Below, piece by piece: positions 10,770 through 59,537 of a stretch of DNA of 64,000 nt; position 1 is the first letter of the stretch, and every line of letters begins with the position of its first letter. The notes beneath the pieces were generated by a model. That model did not search any database. It was not told the origin of the DNA and worked only from the letters and a program-made list of their open reading frames with translations. The stretch comes from an uncultured Bdellovibrio sp. (GTDB lineage Bacteria > Bdellovibrionota > Bdellovibrionia > Bdellovibrionales > Bdellovibrionaceae): positions 1-64,000 of the forward strand of contig CAWVRN010000015.1 of NCBI GenBank assembly GCA_963932905.1, in the 5' to 3' direction. The position numbers were made by a program, and so were the translations under genes.

Positions 10770-11324
10770 GTGCTTGTGAGACAGTCCTATTTGATAGCAT
10801 TACTTCTATTTCTTCCTTTATCGAACTACGCCGTAACAGGGTTTCCCGGCATCAATTTGTCGATTTCGGCCCATCATGAATCCGCTACGACCAAAGACAA
10901 TCAAGTGGATACTACGACCAGTAGCAAAAGTTCCAATATCACTTTTGGTCTTGGCGCAACACTCAATGGCGGCATGTATTTAGGATCTATCTATGATGTG
11001 GCAATTAAAAATGAGGGAAATAACAATTTTCAGGATTCAAATCTTGGATTCAGCGTTGGATTCACAGATCGCGGTGCATACATGACTTACCATCACTTTT
11101 TTAATTCCGTTTATTATTTAGACTCTAATACTAAATATCTAGGCGACGGATACGGTTTTGATTTGGGATTTCAAATGATATTAGGAGAAGGTTTTTCTAT
11201 CGGCGGACAATTTTCTTATAAGAAGACTAATTTAAATAACAAAATTGTTAATGGAGAGACAACGCCAGCCGATTACGGTCGTGAAACAATTTATCCATCA
11301 GTGATTTTAGGTTTCTCGTTTTAA
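10770..11324 (+). CDS. outer-membrane beta-barrel hypothetical protein
   Basis: signal peptide; C-terminal ILGFSF beta-signal. Confidence 0.65.
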   Translation: MLVRQSYLIALLLFLPLSNYAVTGFPGINLSISAHHESATTKDNQVDTTTSSKSSNITFGLGATLNGGMYLGSIYDVAIKNEGNNNFQDSNLGFSVGFTDRGAYMTYHHFFNSVYYLDSNTKYLGDGYGFDLGFQMILGEGFSIGGQFSYKKTNLNNKIVNGETTPADYGRETIYPSVILGFSF

Positions 11325-54748: not shown

Positions 54749-55384
54749 CTAAGAGTCCCCATCTCGACGCGCAGGAATTGATTCATAGTAGGCCATTATC
54801 TCCGCCCACAATTTTTGATAGTTTTCTAAATTGAGCCATGCTTCTGGATCTCCAACTGTACCAAATCCCGATGGGCTCTTTACCCTTTGTCCATCAAGAA
54901 TTTTGCGTGTTGACTCAAACTGTTCTCGACTCTTAGGTGCTGGGTACCGACCAAGCCAGTAAACATACTCGGTCATTACATCAAGCAATCTTCGCTGAGG
55001 ATCTGTGACAACAAATCCTGCATCTTTTGCGATCTTATTTAGTTGATGAATTGGCTTTAGGTTCTCGCAATGGCCGTCCCGTTTAACGATACACGCTTTT
55101 AGAAGTAGTTCGATAGCCAATCCAGCATTTAATCGAAAAATAGGAGGAAGAGCTGCGCCAAACGCAAAACCAGATCCAAGGCCTAATACTTCAGGGGACA
55201 CATTTACCGGACTATCTTTTTCACACACATTACCTAGAAGAACTGCGGCTGCATTAAGGTCTGAAGCTCTATTTCGCCAATACACTCCAAATCGAATGTT
55301 GATGTCGTAGCGGTCCCACACTCTCTCGTATTCATAAGAGCAATCTAAATCTTCAGTTGGATGAAGCTTCTCGAATTTTTTCAT
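54749..55384 (-). CDS. HEPN-like hypothetical protein
   Basis: AIELLLKA...H.L..I...GRYP pattern. Confidence 0.5.
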   Translation of the reverse strand: MKKFEKLHPTEDLDCSYEYERVWDRYDINIRFGVYWRNRASDLNAAAVLLGNVCEKDSPVNVSPEVLGLGSGFAFGAALPPIFRLNAGLAIELLLKACIVKRDGHCENLKPIHQLNKIAKDAGFVVTDPQRRLLDVMTEYVYWLGRYPAPKSREQFESTRKILDGQRVKSPSGFGTVGDPEAWLNLENYQKLWAEIMAYYESIPARRDGDS

Positions 55385-55403
55385 ATTTTTAATTCCTACC
55401 GAC

Positions 55404-55961
55404 TTAGATTTTATCGAGCTTGGCTTTAAGGCTCGATTGTATAGGAGAATTGAAAAGAACGGAGACTTCCTCCCCTGACAGTTCCTCACTCTCATATAGT
55501 TTTTCAGCGATCAATTTAATTGCCGGTTTAAATGGGGTAAGTGTTCTTAATACCCAGGAAAGCTTCCAATCGACATAGGCTCTGACTAGCGGATTTTCAA
55601 TGTCAGCAAGTGTTCCAGGATTATTGACGGATAATTTGACCGTTGCGTTTTTAAACGTTTCATCAAATTCCAACAAATCCTCGATTAGTTCAATTGCGCC
55701 AACTAAGTCAGTATGACTGCGATATATAGTGTATCTGCCCGATATCAATACCTCGCCGACAAACCCTGCTAAAGAGATTCTGATTTCCCGAAGAGCTTCG
55801 TCAGGATTTGTTATTTCTCGTGCGGGCGGTTCTGTTGACATCACTCCACGGTATTTATCGGTTCCTTTTATCGAGATTCTTTTTATCTTTAAACCATGAA
55901 TAGTGGCCATAACGGCGTGAGCAGTCTCATGGTATGCAGTTTTCAACTTTTCATGATCCAC
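55404..55961 (-). CDS. standalone M41 (FtsH protease domain)-like metallopeptidase
   Basis: TAYHETAHAV, LAG..GE, IA..L.E.EELSGEEV motifs; no AAA domain; start uncertain (55961 or 55997). Confidence 0.7.
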   Translation of the reverse strand: MDHEKLKTAYHETAHAVMATIHGLKIKRISIKGTDKYRGVMSTEPPAREITNPDEALREIRISLAGFVGEVLISGRYTIYRSHTDLVGAIELIEDLLEFDETFKNATVKLSVNNPGTLADIENPLVRAYVDWKLSWVLRTLTPFKPAIKLIAEKLYESEELSGEEVSVLFNSPIQSSLKAKLDKI

Positions 55962-56181
55962 GCCGTAACCTCTTTGCTCCAATCGTCCCCATCCCATAAA
56001 AAAGCCCGAAGTCTGTGTTGTCTCAGCCCTTCGGGTTCAACGTTTTCGTCCCCAATTTCTATTTCTGGATTTGCCGCAAATCAACAGCGGCCAAGATCAA
56101 CTATTTAAAATCCGTATCTAATTTTCAATTCCAAGTTCCCGAGAACTCACGGGGACGACCCGGGTTCTCAAACTCTGAAAT

Positions 56182-56534
56182 TGGTGGAGGCGCCGGGAAT
56201 TGAACCCGGGTCCGCAAGAGTTCCACGAAAAGGCGCTACATACTTAGTCACTGTTTTTAGTTAGGCTATCGGACTTCCAACGACAAAATTCCAATAGTCA
56301 CCCCCGCAGTTTATTTAGGTCGGTGCCCTGTAGAGAACAGCACTCAACCGGTACGGCATTAATAACAGATCTTCAGCTCAACACCGTCGATTCAACTGAG
56401 ATCCGTGACAGAACTAAGCTGCCATTGCAACGTTTTCGTTAGCAAATAATAGTTTGCACCTTTTTAACGAGGTCCCTGTGCGCCCCGGTATGCTCCCTTT
56501 GCTTCACTTCCCACGTCGAAGCCATGTCGCCCCC
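56182..56534 (-). ncRNA. ssrA: tmRNA
   Basis: 5' GGGGGCG pairs with 3' CGCCUCC-ACCA including G3.U; T-arm CCCGGG-UUCAAUU-CCCGG; tag ORF 56443-56414 ANENVAMAA*. Confidence 0.95.
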
Positions 56535-56598
56535 ACTTGAAAGTTTCTAAAACAAAGACAGACCCTAGTTCTAAACTATTTCCGATTGGTTTACAAAT

Positions 56599-57090
56599 TT
56601 AATAAGGCGTTCCGTCTTTTCTTGTGAAAACCCATTGTCCATTATCGTTCTGAACACCCCTAATATCGTCATTAGGATACGTCACCTCATCCCCTAATGA
56701 TCGATCGCCGACCTCTAAATACCAAGCGTCCTTGTTCGACCGGTTCTGAAACTGATGAGCCTCGCCTCCCGCGGGAAACCCTGCGCACATACCCGCGCTT
56801 AGCACCGTTTCTGTGCCGTCACCCAGGATCAGCGTCAATTCGCCTTCAACCACATAAACAAATTCATCTTGTGTTTTATGTTTGTGTAACAAAGACGATT
56901 TCGAATTAGGTTTCAAATGAGTCAGATTCACTCCGAAATTTTTCAATCCAAATACTTCGCCTAATTGACGTTTCTCTCGCCCCGCCATCAGCGCCGCAAA
57001 CGGTGCTGGATAGATGGATGGTTTGGCTCTTATCGCTACATCTTTGGATTTAACCGCAACCAGTTTTAAATTTTTATTTGTCATCTGCAC
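56599..57090 (-). CDS. cupin domain protein
   Basis: GLKNFGVNL..L.P...SSL.H.H..QDEFVYV.EG, AH...N motifs. Confidence 0.9.
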   Translation of the reverse strand: MQMTNKNLKLVAVKSKDVAIRAKPSIYPAPFAALMAGREKRQLGEVFGLKNFGVNLTHLKPNSKSSLLHKHKTQDEFVYVVEGELTLILGDGTETVLSAGMCAGFPAGGEAHQFQNRSNKDAWYLEVGDRSLGDEVTYPNDDIRGVQNDNGQWVFTRKDGTPY

Positions 57091-57135
57091 ACTATATCGA
57101 TCCGTGTGCGAGCCTTACAAGTTTTGACTGGTCGT

Positions 57136-57228
57136 AAAAAAGAAAAAACCGAGTGGGGGGACACTCGGTTTCATTTGGGGGGAGAAGCAACCGTCTTTGG
57201 GGGGAAAGACTTTGTGGCCGCTTCTGTC
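57136..57228 (-). ncRNA. candidate sRNA with three UCCCCCCA motifs
   Basis: nested stems, three identical C6 motifs, intrinsic terminator, upstream sigma-54 site. Confidence 0.65.
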
Positions 57229-57238
57229 TTTATAGTAT

Positions 57239-57255
57239 TGCAATGGCCAAACCAA
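57239..57255 (-). promoter_or_regulatory. putative sigma-54 promoter of the candidate sRNA
   Basis: TTGG-TTTGGCCATT-GCA (GG-N10-GC). Confidence 0.6.
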
Positions 57256-57440
57256 CTGACTCGTCTACGTTCGCTTCTATAAGCAAATAAATCACAGCGG
57301 CCACTTTGGGAACACTTCGCGCGCCAAACCTGGCCTTAGTGTTTACGTTCCAAATCGATGCGGATTAAATTGATACACAAACAAGACCTGTACTGTGGAC
57401 CGATTGAAATCAGCAGCGGGCTCACTTATCCTTTCTAACG

Positions 57441-57863
57441 ATGACGTCGATACTGCCGGCACCTTTAAAAATTCAAGATCTGGCTATCAAGGATGACAAC
57501 GCCAAACTGGTTTGGGATTTCACTCTTCGTTGCCAAACCAAAAAATCACTGTCACTGATCACCGAACTCAGATTAATCCAGCGCAGTCCAATGGATGCTG
57601 ATCGAATCACATTTGAATCTAAAGATATTAAATTATTTAAAGACACTATCGAGCTTCAGCCGGGCGTCGAAAAATTTAGTCGTGAAATTTCTTTGGCAGA
57701 ATTAAAATCGATTTTTCAATCCACGATCAGCGAGTTAACCCAAGATCGCAAATCCAGCCATCCGTTTTGGCAGCTCAGATTAAAATTTACGGATTCAAAT
57801 AAAACGGAAACATTTGGCCTAACATTTAAACCAGCACCGGAAAATTGGTTTCATGTTACTTAA
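57441..57863 (+). CDS. hypothetical protein
   Basis: 140-aa ORF, no recognised motif. Confidence 0.5.
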   Translation: MTSILPAPLKIQDLAIKDDNAKLVWDFTLRCQTKKSLSLITELRLIQRSPMDADRITFESKDIKLFKDTIELQPGVEKFSREISLAELKSIFQSTISELTQDRKSSHPFWQLRLKFTDSNKTETFGLTFKPAPENWFHVT

Positions 57864-58370: not shown

Positions 58371-59384
58371 TTACAGCTGTCCTTCATTTTCAAATAAATT
58401 AGCTGCCTTCATTGCCTCTTCAGCCAAATCCTGAACTGATTTTTTTACCGGCGCTACCGTTTGATCGGCAGCAACGGCCTTCCCAGCTGTTAACGCGTCT
58501 GTTTTCGCCACATCAGTGACCGGGAATAATTGGATATTAATCTGATAAATACGCTCGCCCTTTTTTTCTTTACGTGCGATCGCATTGTCTTTGTTTAGGC
58601 TCTTACGTAATTGGCGTAATTTGAATTTAGTTTCCTCAAATTCTTCTTTAGTCAGTGACAGCGTTAATGTTCCAAATTCACGTTCCTGAGGCGCTTCTTG
58701 ATACAATGATTCTAAACCGATGTACATCAGCTGCATCTGCAATTTACGAACTAGCGCCACGGGAATTTCTTCCGCTGAATCCATCAGATTATGGGCGCGT
58801 TTCATTTCACCTGTGACTGGATCTTTGCGGATCTCACCACTTGAAATTAATGAATTCAACGCCGCTTCGATTTCTTGTTCAGACGCCTTGTTACGAAGAA
58901 GGGCTTTTAACGATTGAATATCAAACGAAACGCCTTCTTGATCAATCATCGCATAGATAACCCAAGCTACCCAATTAGGAATCTTTTCCCAAATGCGACG
59001 ATCGATTTCGCCTGATTTCAATTTTTGATTGATACGAACTTCAGACAGCTTTTTTAAATAAACGTTACGTTCCGTTGTATCTTCGGCTTGGTTTAATTTT
59101 ACCAAGTGTAAGAATTCTTCTGTTTGTTCTTTGTTTAATGAAAGTGCTTTAGCGAATTTTAAAATCATATCGTCGGACAAGTTACGCTGTCCTTCGATAA
59201 TCATCTTTAGATAATTAGGTGATTTGATATTCGCCGCTGCCGAAAACAGTTGGTAGCTGTATGGGCGAAGATCGTTTTTGGTAAGCTCTTTCTTGTAGTG
59301 ATAGAAATCCTGCAAGAACAAGCGATAGTCTAAATAATCGGACAAGGCAGGTGGTAAAATATTGTTTTTATCAAGTGCGCTCAT
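58371..59384 (-). CDS. TIGR02147 / DUF4423 family protein
   Basis: Y.DYR.FL.DFY...K, YSY..FS..A.I.SPNYLK.II.G.RNL, R.F..LTL, YQIN.QLFP motifs. Confidence 0.88.
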   Translation of the reverse strand: MSALDKNNILPPALSDYLDYRLFLQDFYHYKKELTKNDLRPYSYQLFSAAANIKSPNYLKMIIEGQRNLSDDMILKFAKALSLNKEQTEEFLHLVKLNQAEDTTERNVYLKKLSEVRINQKLKSGEIDRRIWEKIPNWVAWVIYAMIDQEGVSFDIQSLKALLRNKASEQEIEAALNSLISSGEIRKDPVTGEMKRAHNLMDSAEEIPVALVRKLQMQLMYIGLESLYQEAPQEREFGTLTLSLTKEEFEETKFKLRQLRKSLNKDNAIARKEKKGERIYQINIQLFPVTDVAKTDALTAGKAVAADQTVAPVKKSVQDLAEEAMKAANLFENEGQL

Positions 59385-59537
59385 CTGTAACCCCCGAGGT
59401 CTTTTCGCCTCTCTATTAAAAATCAAAATGCTAACATCTGCTAACATTTACTTTAGAGTTGATACCTTGCGGCTATTGCTGAATTTGGTGTCAAAATTTC
59501 CCAACCCCTAACTCTAATGTCCCCGGATTGTTACTAG

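Follow-up and report, generated by a model that had tools for sequence, protein, structure and literature searches.

The small RNA locus

The 64-kb window analysed here (the whole stretch from position 1 to 64,000 of contig CAWVRN010000015.1, assembly GCA_963932905.1, from an uncultured Bdellovibrio sp.) contains, within 57260-57130, what is almost certainly a real, conserved and uncatalogued RNA gene belonging to a family of the Bdellovibrionota. Its promoter, stems, linker and terminator can be read directly from the sequence, and all of them lie on the minus strand. The sigma-54-type promoter TGGTTTGGCCATTGCA spans 57254-57239, with GG at 57253-57252 and GC at 57241-57240 separated by ten nucleotides (nt). 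According to standard sigma-54 geometry, transcription would start at the G at 57228, 12 nt past the C of the -12 GC. The distance from this predicted +1 to the first stem is constant across all copies in the alignment.

The predicted small RNA (sRNA) of about 92 nt occupies 57137-57228 and scores 100.9 bits with the covariance model R1 and 120.5 bits with R2, both described below. Stem-loop 1 (57225-57183) is present in the minimum free energy (MFE) and centroid folds. Its outer stem, AGAAGCGGCC/GGTTGCTTCT, pairs 57225-57216 with 57192-57183 around an inner hairpin, GTCTTT-CCCCCC-AAAGAC (57210-57193; arms 57210-57205 and 57198-57193). The apical loop of this hairpin is the first of three C-runs (CCCCCC, 57204-57199), unpaired in the MFE structure and kept as C5-C6 in 16/16 copies of the genus. 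The second C-run (CCCCCC, 57182-57177) lies in the single-stranded linker UCCCCCCA (57183-57176); it is likewise unpaired in the MFE structure, and its length ranges from C4 to C9 across all genus copies. The third forms the loop (57160-57155) of an intrinsic terminator hairpin at 57172-57145, for which the terminator scan gave 11 pairs, five of them G-C, and a 6-nt loop. The U-tract TTTTTTCTTTTTT (57148-57136) then brings the transcript to its predicted end, the T-run finishing at 57136, so that a G+C-containing stem is followed by a U-tract as in Rho-independent terminators.

Both the repetition of the C-motif and the fold depart from what composition would give. The 8-mer TGGGGGGA is found at 57154, 57176 and 57198, and four times in the window as a whole against 0.91 expected, a count attained in 2/100 window shuffles. 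With three copies inside 52 nt, the pattern is therefore not one of chance. A 103-nt stretch covering the locus folds with an MFE of -33.3 kcal/mol, compared with -15.85 +/- 2.93 kcal/mol in dinucleotide shuffles (z = -5.96), and 0/200 shuffles folded as low. The promoter, predicted +1, nested stems, linker and terminator with its U-run were all found on the minus strand where an earlier description, the sequence-only reading, had located them, and its three identical motif copies agree exactly with ours.

Two other uses of the same sequence were considered and dismissed. A small open reading frame (ORF) of 46 amino acids (57115-57255) begins upstream of the predicted transcript; C-run lengths vary by 1, 2 or 4 nt among copies, indels that are not multiples of three, and a conserved reading frame is thereby excluded. 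A G-quadruplex or i-motif was set aside by reasoning, since four tracts are required and there are three here and two in Bdellovibrio.

Conservation, covariation and distribution

The source genome (G000, from an uncultured bacterium of the Bdellovibrionaceae/Pseudobdellovibrionaceae; 4.55 Mb in 58 contigs, 40.7% G+C, 98.6% complete) carries a second copy, 83% identical, at G000:C29:14867-14979. BLAST recovered 1-3 copies in each of 9/9 congeneric genomes and none in 27 genomes from other genera of the family. The genus thus totals 16 full copies and one truncated copy. When the copies are aligned, TGG, TTGCA, the stretch to the predicted start, the inner hairpin and all three C-runs are invariant or nearly so, and what varies is the spacer of the promoter together with the outer and terminator stems. 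The paralogues lie in at least three unrelated gene neighbourhoods (a cupin gene downstream; astacin and cytidylyltransferase; an ABC transporter and a YiiD thioesterase), as expected of free-standing genes. Often the downstream gene is convergent, which speaks against the RNA being the leader of any one gene.

The truncated copy (L016; G009:C52, ~11242-11296) retains the promoter and the first 55 nt at 95% identity to the window copy. The similarity ends inside the first C-run with unrelated sequence beyond, as in a paralogue that has been disrupted or rearranged. The second copy of the source genome is flanked by two inverted repeats, long and near-perfect (L002 1277-1403 and 1852-1980; G000 contig 29). 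In a permissive Rfam scan they resemble eukaryotic microRNA-precursor hairpins at 43-50 bits, below gathering, and they are possibly palindromes like repetitive extragenic palindromic (REP) sequences or miniature inverted-repeat transposable elements (MITEs).

No catalogued RNA family accounts for the locus. At Rfam gathering thresholds the sole match in the whole window was the transfer-messenger RNA (tmRNA). With Rfam 15 at E <= 10, the interval 56900-57500 gave two weak matches. One falls outside the locus (56906-56995); the second, C0465, lies on the opposite strand and covers the terminator hairpin with the spacer past it, scoring 15.4 bits where the gathering threshold is 40. Nothing was found at the sRNA positions of seven relatives' loci at E <= 0.01. 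A match to a known Rfam family had been named in the sequence-only reading as grounds for rejecting a new gene; with none in the window or in these seven loci, and with copies in unrelated neighbourhoods, its proposal of an unannotated free-standing sRNA gene is well backed.

Support for the structure comes from covariation. Misalignment of the terminator's 3' arm in a plain MAFFT alignment left stem-loop 1 as the sole structure that RNAalifold recovered, and model-based alignments were substituted. The covariance model R1 was built from the 16 genus copies and then used to realign them; R2 is a second model that includes the promoter. In the R1 genus alignment, 96.1% of cells fall in standard pairs and 12/26 pairs have changed on both sides; 0/500 shuffles equalled any of five measures, and slid controls were 34-62% paired. 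The inner stem GUCUUU/AAAGAC is nearly constant within the genus, where 4/6 of its pairs do not change. In the broader R2 alignment (42 members from several families, 41 distinct sequences), 93.1% of cells are paired, compared with 32-54% in slid controls of the 41 sequences, and 25/26 pairs show compensatory changes (outer stem 9/10, inner stem 6/6, terminator 10/10, the terminator being 99.8% paired). The slid controls, together with the large number of different pair types, argue against an alignment artefact.

The C-runs are conserved together with the fold. Runs of at least four C number 2-5 in every one of the 42 members and, when each member is folded by itself, are nearly all unpaired in the MFE structure; in 42/42 the last run, of at least five C, lies inside the terminator loop. 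The promoter pattern GG-N10-GC is kept in 39/42 members, the three exceptions all belonging to family f6. The C-motifs and the promoter, which the sequence-only reading had expected to be conserved in relatives if the gene were real, are thus borne out in both parts.

We surveyed 151 sampled genomes of the family, representing 41 genera, and 151 sampled genomes of the phylum. R1 matched 58/151 family genomes. Twenty of its loci from other genera were inspected, of which nine have a correctly spaced sigma-54 box, often with the full consensus TGGCAC-N5-(T/C)TGCA, followed by a C6-loop hairpin, a linker of C5 and a terminator whose loop is C5-C6. The other 11/20, in which GG-N10-GC with correct spacing is missing, were set aside as C-loop terminators or doubtful cases. 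R2, which provided the covariance search in relatives that the sequence-only reading had called for, matched 66/151 family genomes in 21/41 genera at E <= 1e-4, including 27/32 genomes of genus g9. The architecture was present in 20 of the 22 R2 matches that were read. Among newly returned loci it was present in 10/12; the remaining two are L126, which has no promoter, and L129, which has the promoter and short C-runs only. Genus g9 has a minimal form, in which the promoter TGGCAC-N5-TTGCT precedes an RNA of about 55 nt with C7 near its 5' end and C8 in the terminator loop.

An exact-pattern scan of a public species collection returned 12 stretches with the long form, 11 of them from metagenome-assembled genomes (MAGs) titled Bdellovibrio, Bdellovibrionaceae or Pseudobdellovibrionaceae. 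These titles agree with the Bdellovibrionota, the group guessed in the sequence-only reading. The twelfth, an exact match to the genus-specific hairpin, comes from a rumen MAG titled Peptostreptococcaceae (L187, CAJOQI010000142.1), probably a Bdellovibrio-like contig that was wrongly binned or labelled. Of the stretches with the minimal form, five belong to cultured Bdellovibrio strains with complete genomes and one to a Bdellovibrio MAG; the remaining 27 stretches, from unrelated taxa, agree with chance, by which a 17-mer should match ~70 times in 596 Gb.

In the phylum sample, 19/151 genomes matched. Clear homologues are present in family f25 (4/6 genomes), where TGGCAT-N5-TTGCT is followed by AGCAGAAGCGGCC..., a pair of C-runs and a terminator with C7 in its loop, and in family f24 (1/9 genomes); family f6 (5/11 genomes) has similar RNAs. 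Matches in f10 and f21 are doubtful and were excluded, those in f10 and in G212 (f21) for lacking the promoter spacing, and those in G295 and G234 (f21), where the spacing is kept, for having a C-run in the terminator loop alone.

Proposed mechanism and competing explanations

From the sequence we infer that the gene is transcribed, depends on sigma-54 and acts by pairing, and likewise the direction of regulation and the physiological role. Action in trans and any part in the life cycle, both proposed in the sequence-only reading, we infer in the same manner. The gene in the window would be one of two paralogous genes for a trans-acting sRNA of about 92 nt. Transcription would begin near 57228 from the sigma-54 promoter and end at the intrinsic terminator, and the enhancer-binding ATPase required by such a promoter would bind a conserved block 70-126 nt upstream. 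The three unpaired C-runs (5' apical loop, linker and terminator loop) would serve as redundant seeds. As the exposed motif is a C-run, the complementary site is a G-run, and the seeds would pair, without Hfq, with at least five G at or next to the Shine-Dalgarno sequence of target mRNAs. Pairing would block ribosome loading or alter mRNA stability, by analogy with LhrC, sX13, RsaE and 6C. Candidate targets may include an expanded clade of NtrC-type activators with sigma-54-type promoters, resulting in feedback on the sigma-54 regulon. Action through pairing of C-runs with G-runs appears reasonably probable. The explanation as a whole, a sigma-54-driven, Hfq-independent, trans-acting C-run sRNA that pairs with G-run sites, is in our view narrowly favoured.

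Sites of the required kind exist. No match to Hfq was found in the 98.6%-complete source genome. In this genome, 13.6% of GGGGG occurrences stand 4-10 nt ahead of the start codon of an ORF with 100 codons or more, as do 13.5% of GGAGG and 2.8% of CCCCC. At least five G are found 3-10 nt upstream of a plausible start in 142 ORFs (~3.6% of ~3,994), and at least six in 26. Such G-runs at initiation regions point to candidate targets rather than to regulation. By Pfam, the 26 ORFs comprise three NtrC-type sigma-54 activators, FliW, a MotA/ExbB protein, four peptidases (S8 twice, S41 and M14), several enzymes and domains of unknown function (DUFs), and eight proteins without a family. A search of the assembly for the 3' end of the 16S rRNA, and with it the anti-Shine-Dalgarno sequence, did not find it; the rRNA is probably unassembled. 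Duplex energies from RNA.duplexfold for the whole sRNA against leaders (-30 to -44 kcal/mol) were discarded as unrealistic, containing huge interior loops, and the list of G-run sites was kept.

The activators stand out in this list. The genome has 23 strong Sigma54_activat matches; 22 of the 23 genes could be assessed, one being cut by a contig end, and 8/22 have at least five G at the ribosome-binding site, with four more having G4. Activators thus make up 8/142 G-run ORFs as against 23/~3,994 genome-wide (post hoc hypergeometric P = 6.5e-7). An expanded clade of NtrC-type response-regulator/sigma-54 activator genes is represented at G000 C30:4758-6173, C22:18636-20027, C3:102614-104026, C1:541584-542975, C1:383154-384566, C52:11281-12627, C33:~1-1345 and C3:231991-233520, and by loci L076-L098. 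For comparison of gene numbers, two Bdellovibrio genomes have 11-12 activator genes to the 23 found here. The expanded clade uses G-runs of G5-G8 as its ribosome-binding site. Across the genus, at least five G are present in 15/17 loci of this clade and at least four in 17/17, despite diverged flanks; in the next 11 activator loci at least five G occur in 0/11, and seven of these form a neighbouring clade using GGAAGGAAGG. The clade loci also have GGCA(C/T)-N5-TTG(C/T) 39-71 nt upstream of their start codons in 15/17 cases. These sigma-54-type boxes make the activator genes look sigma-54-dependent themselves, which suggests that they may be autoregulated. In a nested co-fold, the linker C-run pairs with the G-run in 7/8 activator leaders with gains of -7.0 to -11.9 kcal/mol; shuffled leaders gave -2.5 to -4.3 +/- ~2 kcal/mol.

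Feedback of the sRNA on the mRNAs of sigma-54 activators in the source genus is nevertheless a tentative and rather doubtful idea. If it were true, C-run sRNAs would cap or time the output of many two-component and sigma-54 pathways together, in a many-activator version of the Qrr-LuxO loop that works without Hfq. Broader still, and unlikely, is an ancient phylum-wide sigma-54-wired module of predatory Bdellovibrionota which in the source genus would form a loop on sigma-54 through the short G5-G8 activator leaders.

The C-runs might alternatively bind a C-specific protein, such as Rho or a KH-domain protein, with the RNA acting as a decoy or sponge. The primary site of Rho prefers C-rich unstructured RNA, and repeated, unpaired, near-identical motifs are the hallmark of sponge RNAs such as CsrB/RsmZ. 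Each molecule of the present family carries 2-5 unpaired C-runs of this sort. The near-invariance of the GUCUUU/AAAGAC stem hints at recognition of a specific sequence, and the mRNA targets are so far candidates only. However, no candidate for a C-run-binding protein was identified, the complementary G-runs occupy ribosome-binding positions in 142 ORFs, and LhrC, sX13 and 6C, C-rich-loop sRNAs studied by experiment, are all described as acting by pairing. We regard a sponge as improbable.

The promoter assignment draws on conservation. The -24 GG and -12 GC are invariant in 21/21 aligned members from 9 genera, with a variable spacer between them, and relatives attain the full sigma-54 consensus TGGCAC-N5-TTGC. 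The genome encodes rpoN (a 483-amino-acid frame matching Sigma54_DBD with 220.5 bits). The enhancer sites of sigma-54 promoters are normally found in the -126 to -70 region, and at the window locus a block TTTGGAACGTAAAC ... GCGCGAAGTGTTCC ... GTGGCC lies at 57298-57354 on the minus strand, about -126 to -70 from the predicted start. When 260 nt upstream of 17 copies were aligned, this block was common to the paralogous loci while the other flanks could not be aligned, which makes it a candidate enhancer region. Upstream of the copies in Bdellovibrio, f24 and f25 the genus block TTTGGnACGTAAAC... was not found. These copies (L128, L130-L134, L127 and L139-L141) have inverted repeats TGTCGAG ... 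CTCGACA, a candidate enhancer site, 70-160 nt upstream. Taken together, the sRNA gene is very probably sigma-54-dependent.

A number of observations weigh against the proposed explanation. TGG-N9-TTGCA occurs 150 times in the genome against ~121 expected from composition, which is not significant, and the -24 box of the window is weak (TGGTTT rather than TGGCAC). Because the motif by itself is barely above chance, the promoter call in the window rests on its conservation in relatives. A sigma-54 interaction domain was found in 0/37 flanking ORFs scanned, unlike the arrangement at qrr1/luxO or pxr/nla19, and the upstream block could be matched to no activator; the Bdellovibrio, f24 and f25 copies have the different upstream repeats TGTCGAG/CTCGACA in its place. 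The three best f6 loci (L135-L137; G210, G218 and G304) have promoter boxes at least 2 nt too close for sigma-54, with TGGCA(C/T) and TTGC 3 or 0 bases apart instead of 5, and the other two f6 loci have no correctly spaced GG-N10-GC. The RNAs of L135-L137 have possibly been rewired to another sigma factor. Covariation was counted on model-fitted alignments, which biases the counts towards the structure. Regarding targets, the enrichment of activators was found post hoc and on non-independent paralogues. The eighth leader gains -2.3 kcal/mol in the co-fold, inside the shuffle range, and the co-fold scores nested pairs at the linker site only, loop contacts being beyond its reach. Two Bdellovibrio genomes, one of them without an sRNA match, have a G-run site on 1/11 and 1/12 activator genes, so the link between G-runs and activators is genus-specific at best. 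Shine-Dalgarno G-runs could simply be a variant of the ribosome-binding site. Finally, the assembled contigs of four RNA-library (metatranscriptome) runs contain none for the sRNA locus, which is uninformative since a 90-nt RNA is easily lost from assemblies.

The weak -24 box also bears on whether the trans-acting RNA might be made from a sigma-70 promoter, or from overlapping sigma-70 and sigma-54 promoters as for glmY/glmZ. The conserved stretch from -12 to +1, ATACTATAAAG, holds a -10-like TATAAA with TTGGTT 15 nt upstream of it, and f6 members retain TTGCAATAG despite the wrong spacing of their sigma-54 boxes. However, with 15 nt the spacer stands at sigma-70's lower limit, and a sigma-70 scan gave no site at the sRNA locus. 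The invariant bases at the would-be -35 are GG, not TTG, and the preceding bases vary (TTGG, ATGG, GTGG and CTGG), so that this reading fits worse than sigma-54. Moreover, relatives converge on TGGCAC-N5-TTGC without a -35-like hexamer. A sigma-70 origin thus seems distinctly improbable.

The immediate neighbour downstream is a Cupin_2 ORF on the same strand (56599-57090), and one could picture the RNA as its cis-acting leader or attenuator. In the scanned 'a' loci (source genome, G006 and G008) a same-strand cupin gene does begin 45-50 nt past the U-tract. By contrast, the second copy of the source genome has an opposite-strand YiiD thioesterase gene at this place and three other loci an opposite-strand astacin gene. 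With a strong terminator whose stem shows the covariation of a constitutive one, no anti-terminator in either the MFE or the centroid fold, and a predicted sigma-70-like promoter separating terminator and cupin gene, a leader is very unlikely. The predicted promoter, TTGTAA-18-TATAGT at 57091-57120 on the minus strand, is consistent with separate transcription of the cupin gene.

Two genes on from the sRNA in the downstream direction, on the same strand, lies the tmRNA gene (56182-56534; RF00023 at 176.6 bits). At 54749-55997, also on the minus strand, two overlapping ORFs of 248 and 197 amino acids may be a truncated or frameshifted gene, the second having only a partial Peptidase_M41 (FtsH-like) match. 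On the other side of the sRNA are a divergent 140-amino-acid ORF without a Pfam match (57441-57863) and a minus-strand DUF4423 gene (58371-59447). The latter has a G5 run at the ribosome-binding site if its start is at 59384. A DUF4423 gene is also found near the sRNA in genus g3 (G104; L029 536-1387), directly upstream and on the same strand. Sequencing runs that match the stretch are mostly DNA from groundwater metagenomes, together with six RNA runs containing about 1/10 of the sampled words. In the four RNA-library runs with assembled contigs, the tmRNA region (56177-56561) is present at high depth and one low-depth piece falls in the cupin gene.

It is barely credible that there is no gene here but a neighbour's terminator with low-complexity C-runs arisen by chance, or a repeat element: the missing transcript contig and a promoter motif not above chance by itself would agree with this, but promoter, structure and unpaired C-runs are conserved in dozens of genomes with abundant compensatory changes, 1-3 copies per genome do not make a dispersed repeat, and no convergent upstream gene ends at the terminator, the 57441-57863 ORF being divergent.

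Comparison with known systems

Little is known about the regulatory RNAs of Bdellovibrio-like predators. Eight attack-phase sRNAs, none given as sigma-54-driven, were reported for B. bacteriovorus HD100 in a study that does not mention RpoN (Karunker et al., 2013; PMC3627812). In its supplement CCCCCCC occurs once, in an mRNA promoter, and 0 times in the sRNA sequences, unlike the C7-bearing Bdellovibrio copies described here (PMC3627812). In the open literature listed for Bdellovibrio together with RpoN, sigma-54 or small RNA, no title or opening part of an abstract names an RNA of this kind. The combination of Bdellovibrio, sRNA and C-rich was not found in the literature searched, subscription-only papers being outside this search. 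The family occurs in uncultured groundwater lineages and, in its minimal form, in cultured Bdellovibrio with complete genomes, which brings it within reach of bench tests. It may open a way into the predators' sigma-54 regulon, and its covariance model could seed a new Rfam family. If the idea about activator leaders were true, it would be an example of an sRNA feeding back on a whole family of sigma-54 activators.

The sequence-only reading had drawn a parallel to Pxr of Myxococcus xanthus as a sigma-54-driven RNA with C-rich loops. The predicted sigma-54 promoter of pxr is found in the literature, together with a multi-stem-loop fold and paralogues in some genera (PMC5568312). C-rich loops are not mentioned there, 'C-rich' occurring 0 times in that paper (PMC5568312). 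Pxr is described as gating a transition in the life cycle of bacteria that, like Bdellovibrio, were once placed in the deltaproteobacteria (PMC5568312). A difference is that pxr, according to the same passages, always adjoins the activator gene nla19 (PMC5568312), and there is no model similarity between the two RNAs.

Qrr1-5 of Vibrio are described as sigma-54-dependent, LuxO-activated sibling sRNAs of about 100 nt encoded in multiple copies. They act back on the mRNA of luxO, which encodes their activator. Feedback of this kind, from a sigma-54 sRNA to activator mRNA, is what we propose for the G-run activator leaders. Qrr sRNAs differ in being Hfq-dependent and in having a seed that is not a C-run, and the models show no similarity. 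In addition, qrr1 adjoins luxO, whereas an activator gene lies beside none of the C-run copies.

C-rich seeds are known from several phyla, as unpaired motifs directed against G-rich or Shine-Dalgarno sequences and often working without a chaperone. The CcsR or 'cuckoo' sRNAs of Alphaproteobacteria have them. They are also described for RsaE/RoxS of Firmicutes and RepG/HPnc5490 of Helicobacter (PMC4132741, PMC3771888), and for 6C of Actinobacteria (PMC6486639). RsaE/RoxS, 6C, RepG and CcsR are unrelated sequence families from other phyla with other promoters, and none of them matched when the window and the loci of relatives were scanned with Rfam.

The sX13 RNA of Xanthomonas, a structured sRNA, comes nearer in its working. 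It is reported to be Hfq-independent and to repress mRNAs with G-rich motifs near the translation start by means of C-rich (4C/5C) apical loops (PMC3771888). A G-rich motif is given there at the ribosome-binding position of 5% of genes in the sX13 genome (PMC3771888); the ~3.6% found here is comparable. By these accounts all three motifs of sX13 are in hairpin loops and its gene is single-copy, and the passages on sX13 do not speak of a sigma-54 promoter (PMC3771888). There is no Rfam model similarity to sX13 either.

The sequence-only reading had placed the RNA among sRNAs with C-rich anti-Shine-Dalgarno seeds, naming the staphylococcal UCCC sRNAs. The kind of RNA is supported; the closest architecture is another, that of LhrC of Listeria monocytogenes, a group (LhrC1-5) in which Rli22 and Rli33-1 are presumably included. 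LhrC is a multicopy RNA of ~100 nt, described as Hfq-independent and as blocking the Shine-Dalgarno region of its targets (PMC4132741). It has three redundant C-rich sites in the same places as the C-run RNA, namely the loop of the 5' hairpin, a stretch left single-stranded and the loop of the terminator (PMC4132741). Its motif is UCCC/CUCCC as opposed to C5-C8 here, and it is a Firmicute RNA under the LisRK two-component system rather than a sigma-54 promoter (PMC4132741). Sequence and model similarity between the two are absent, and no Rfam match was obtained even at E <= 10. In its way of working the C-run RNA appears, by analogy, to resemble LhrC and sX13 while being a member of neither.

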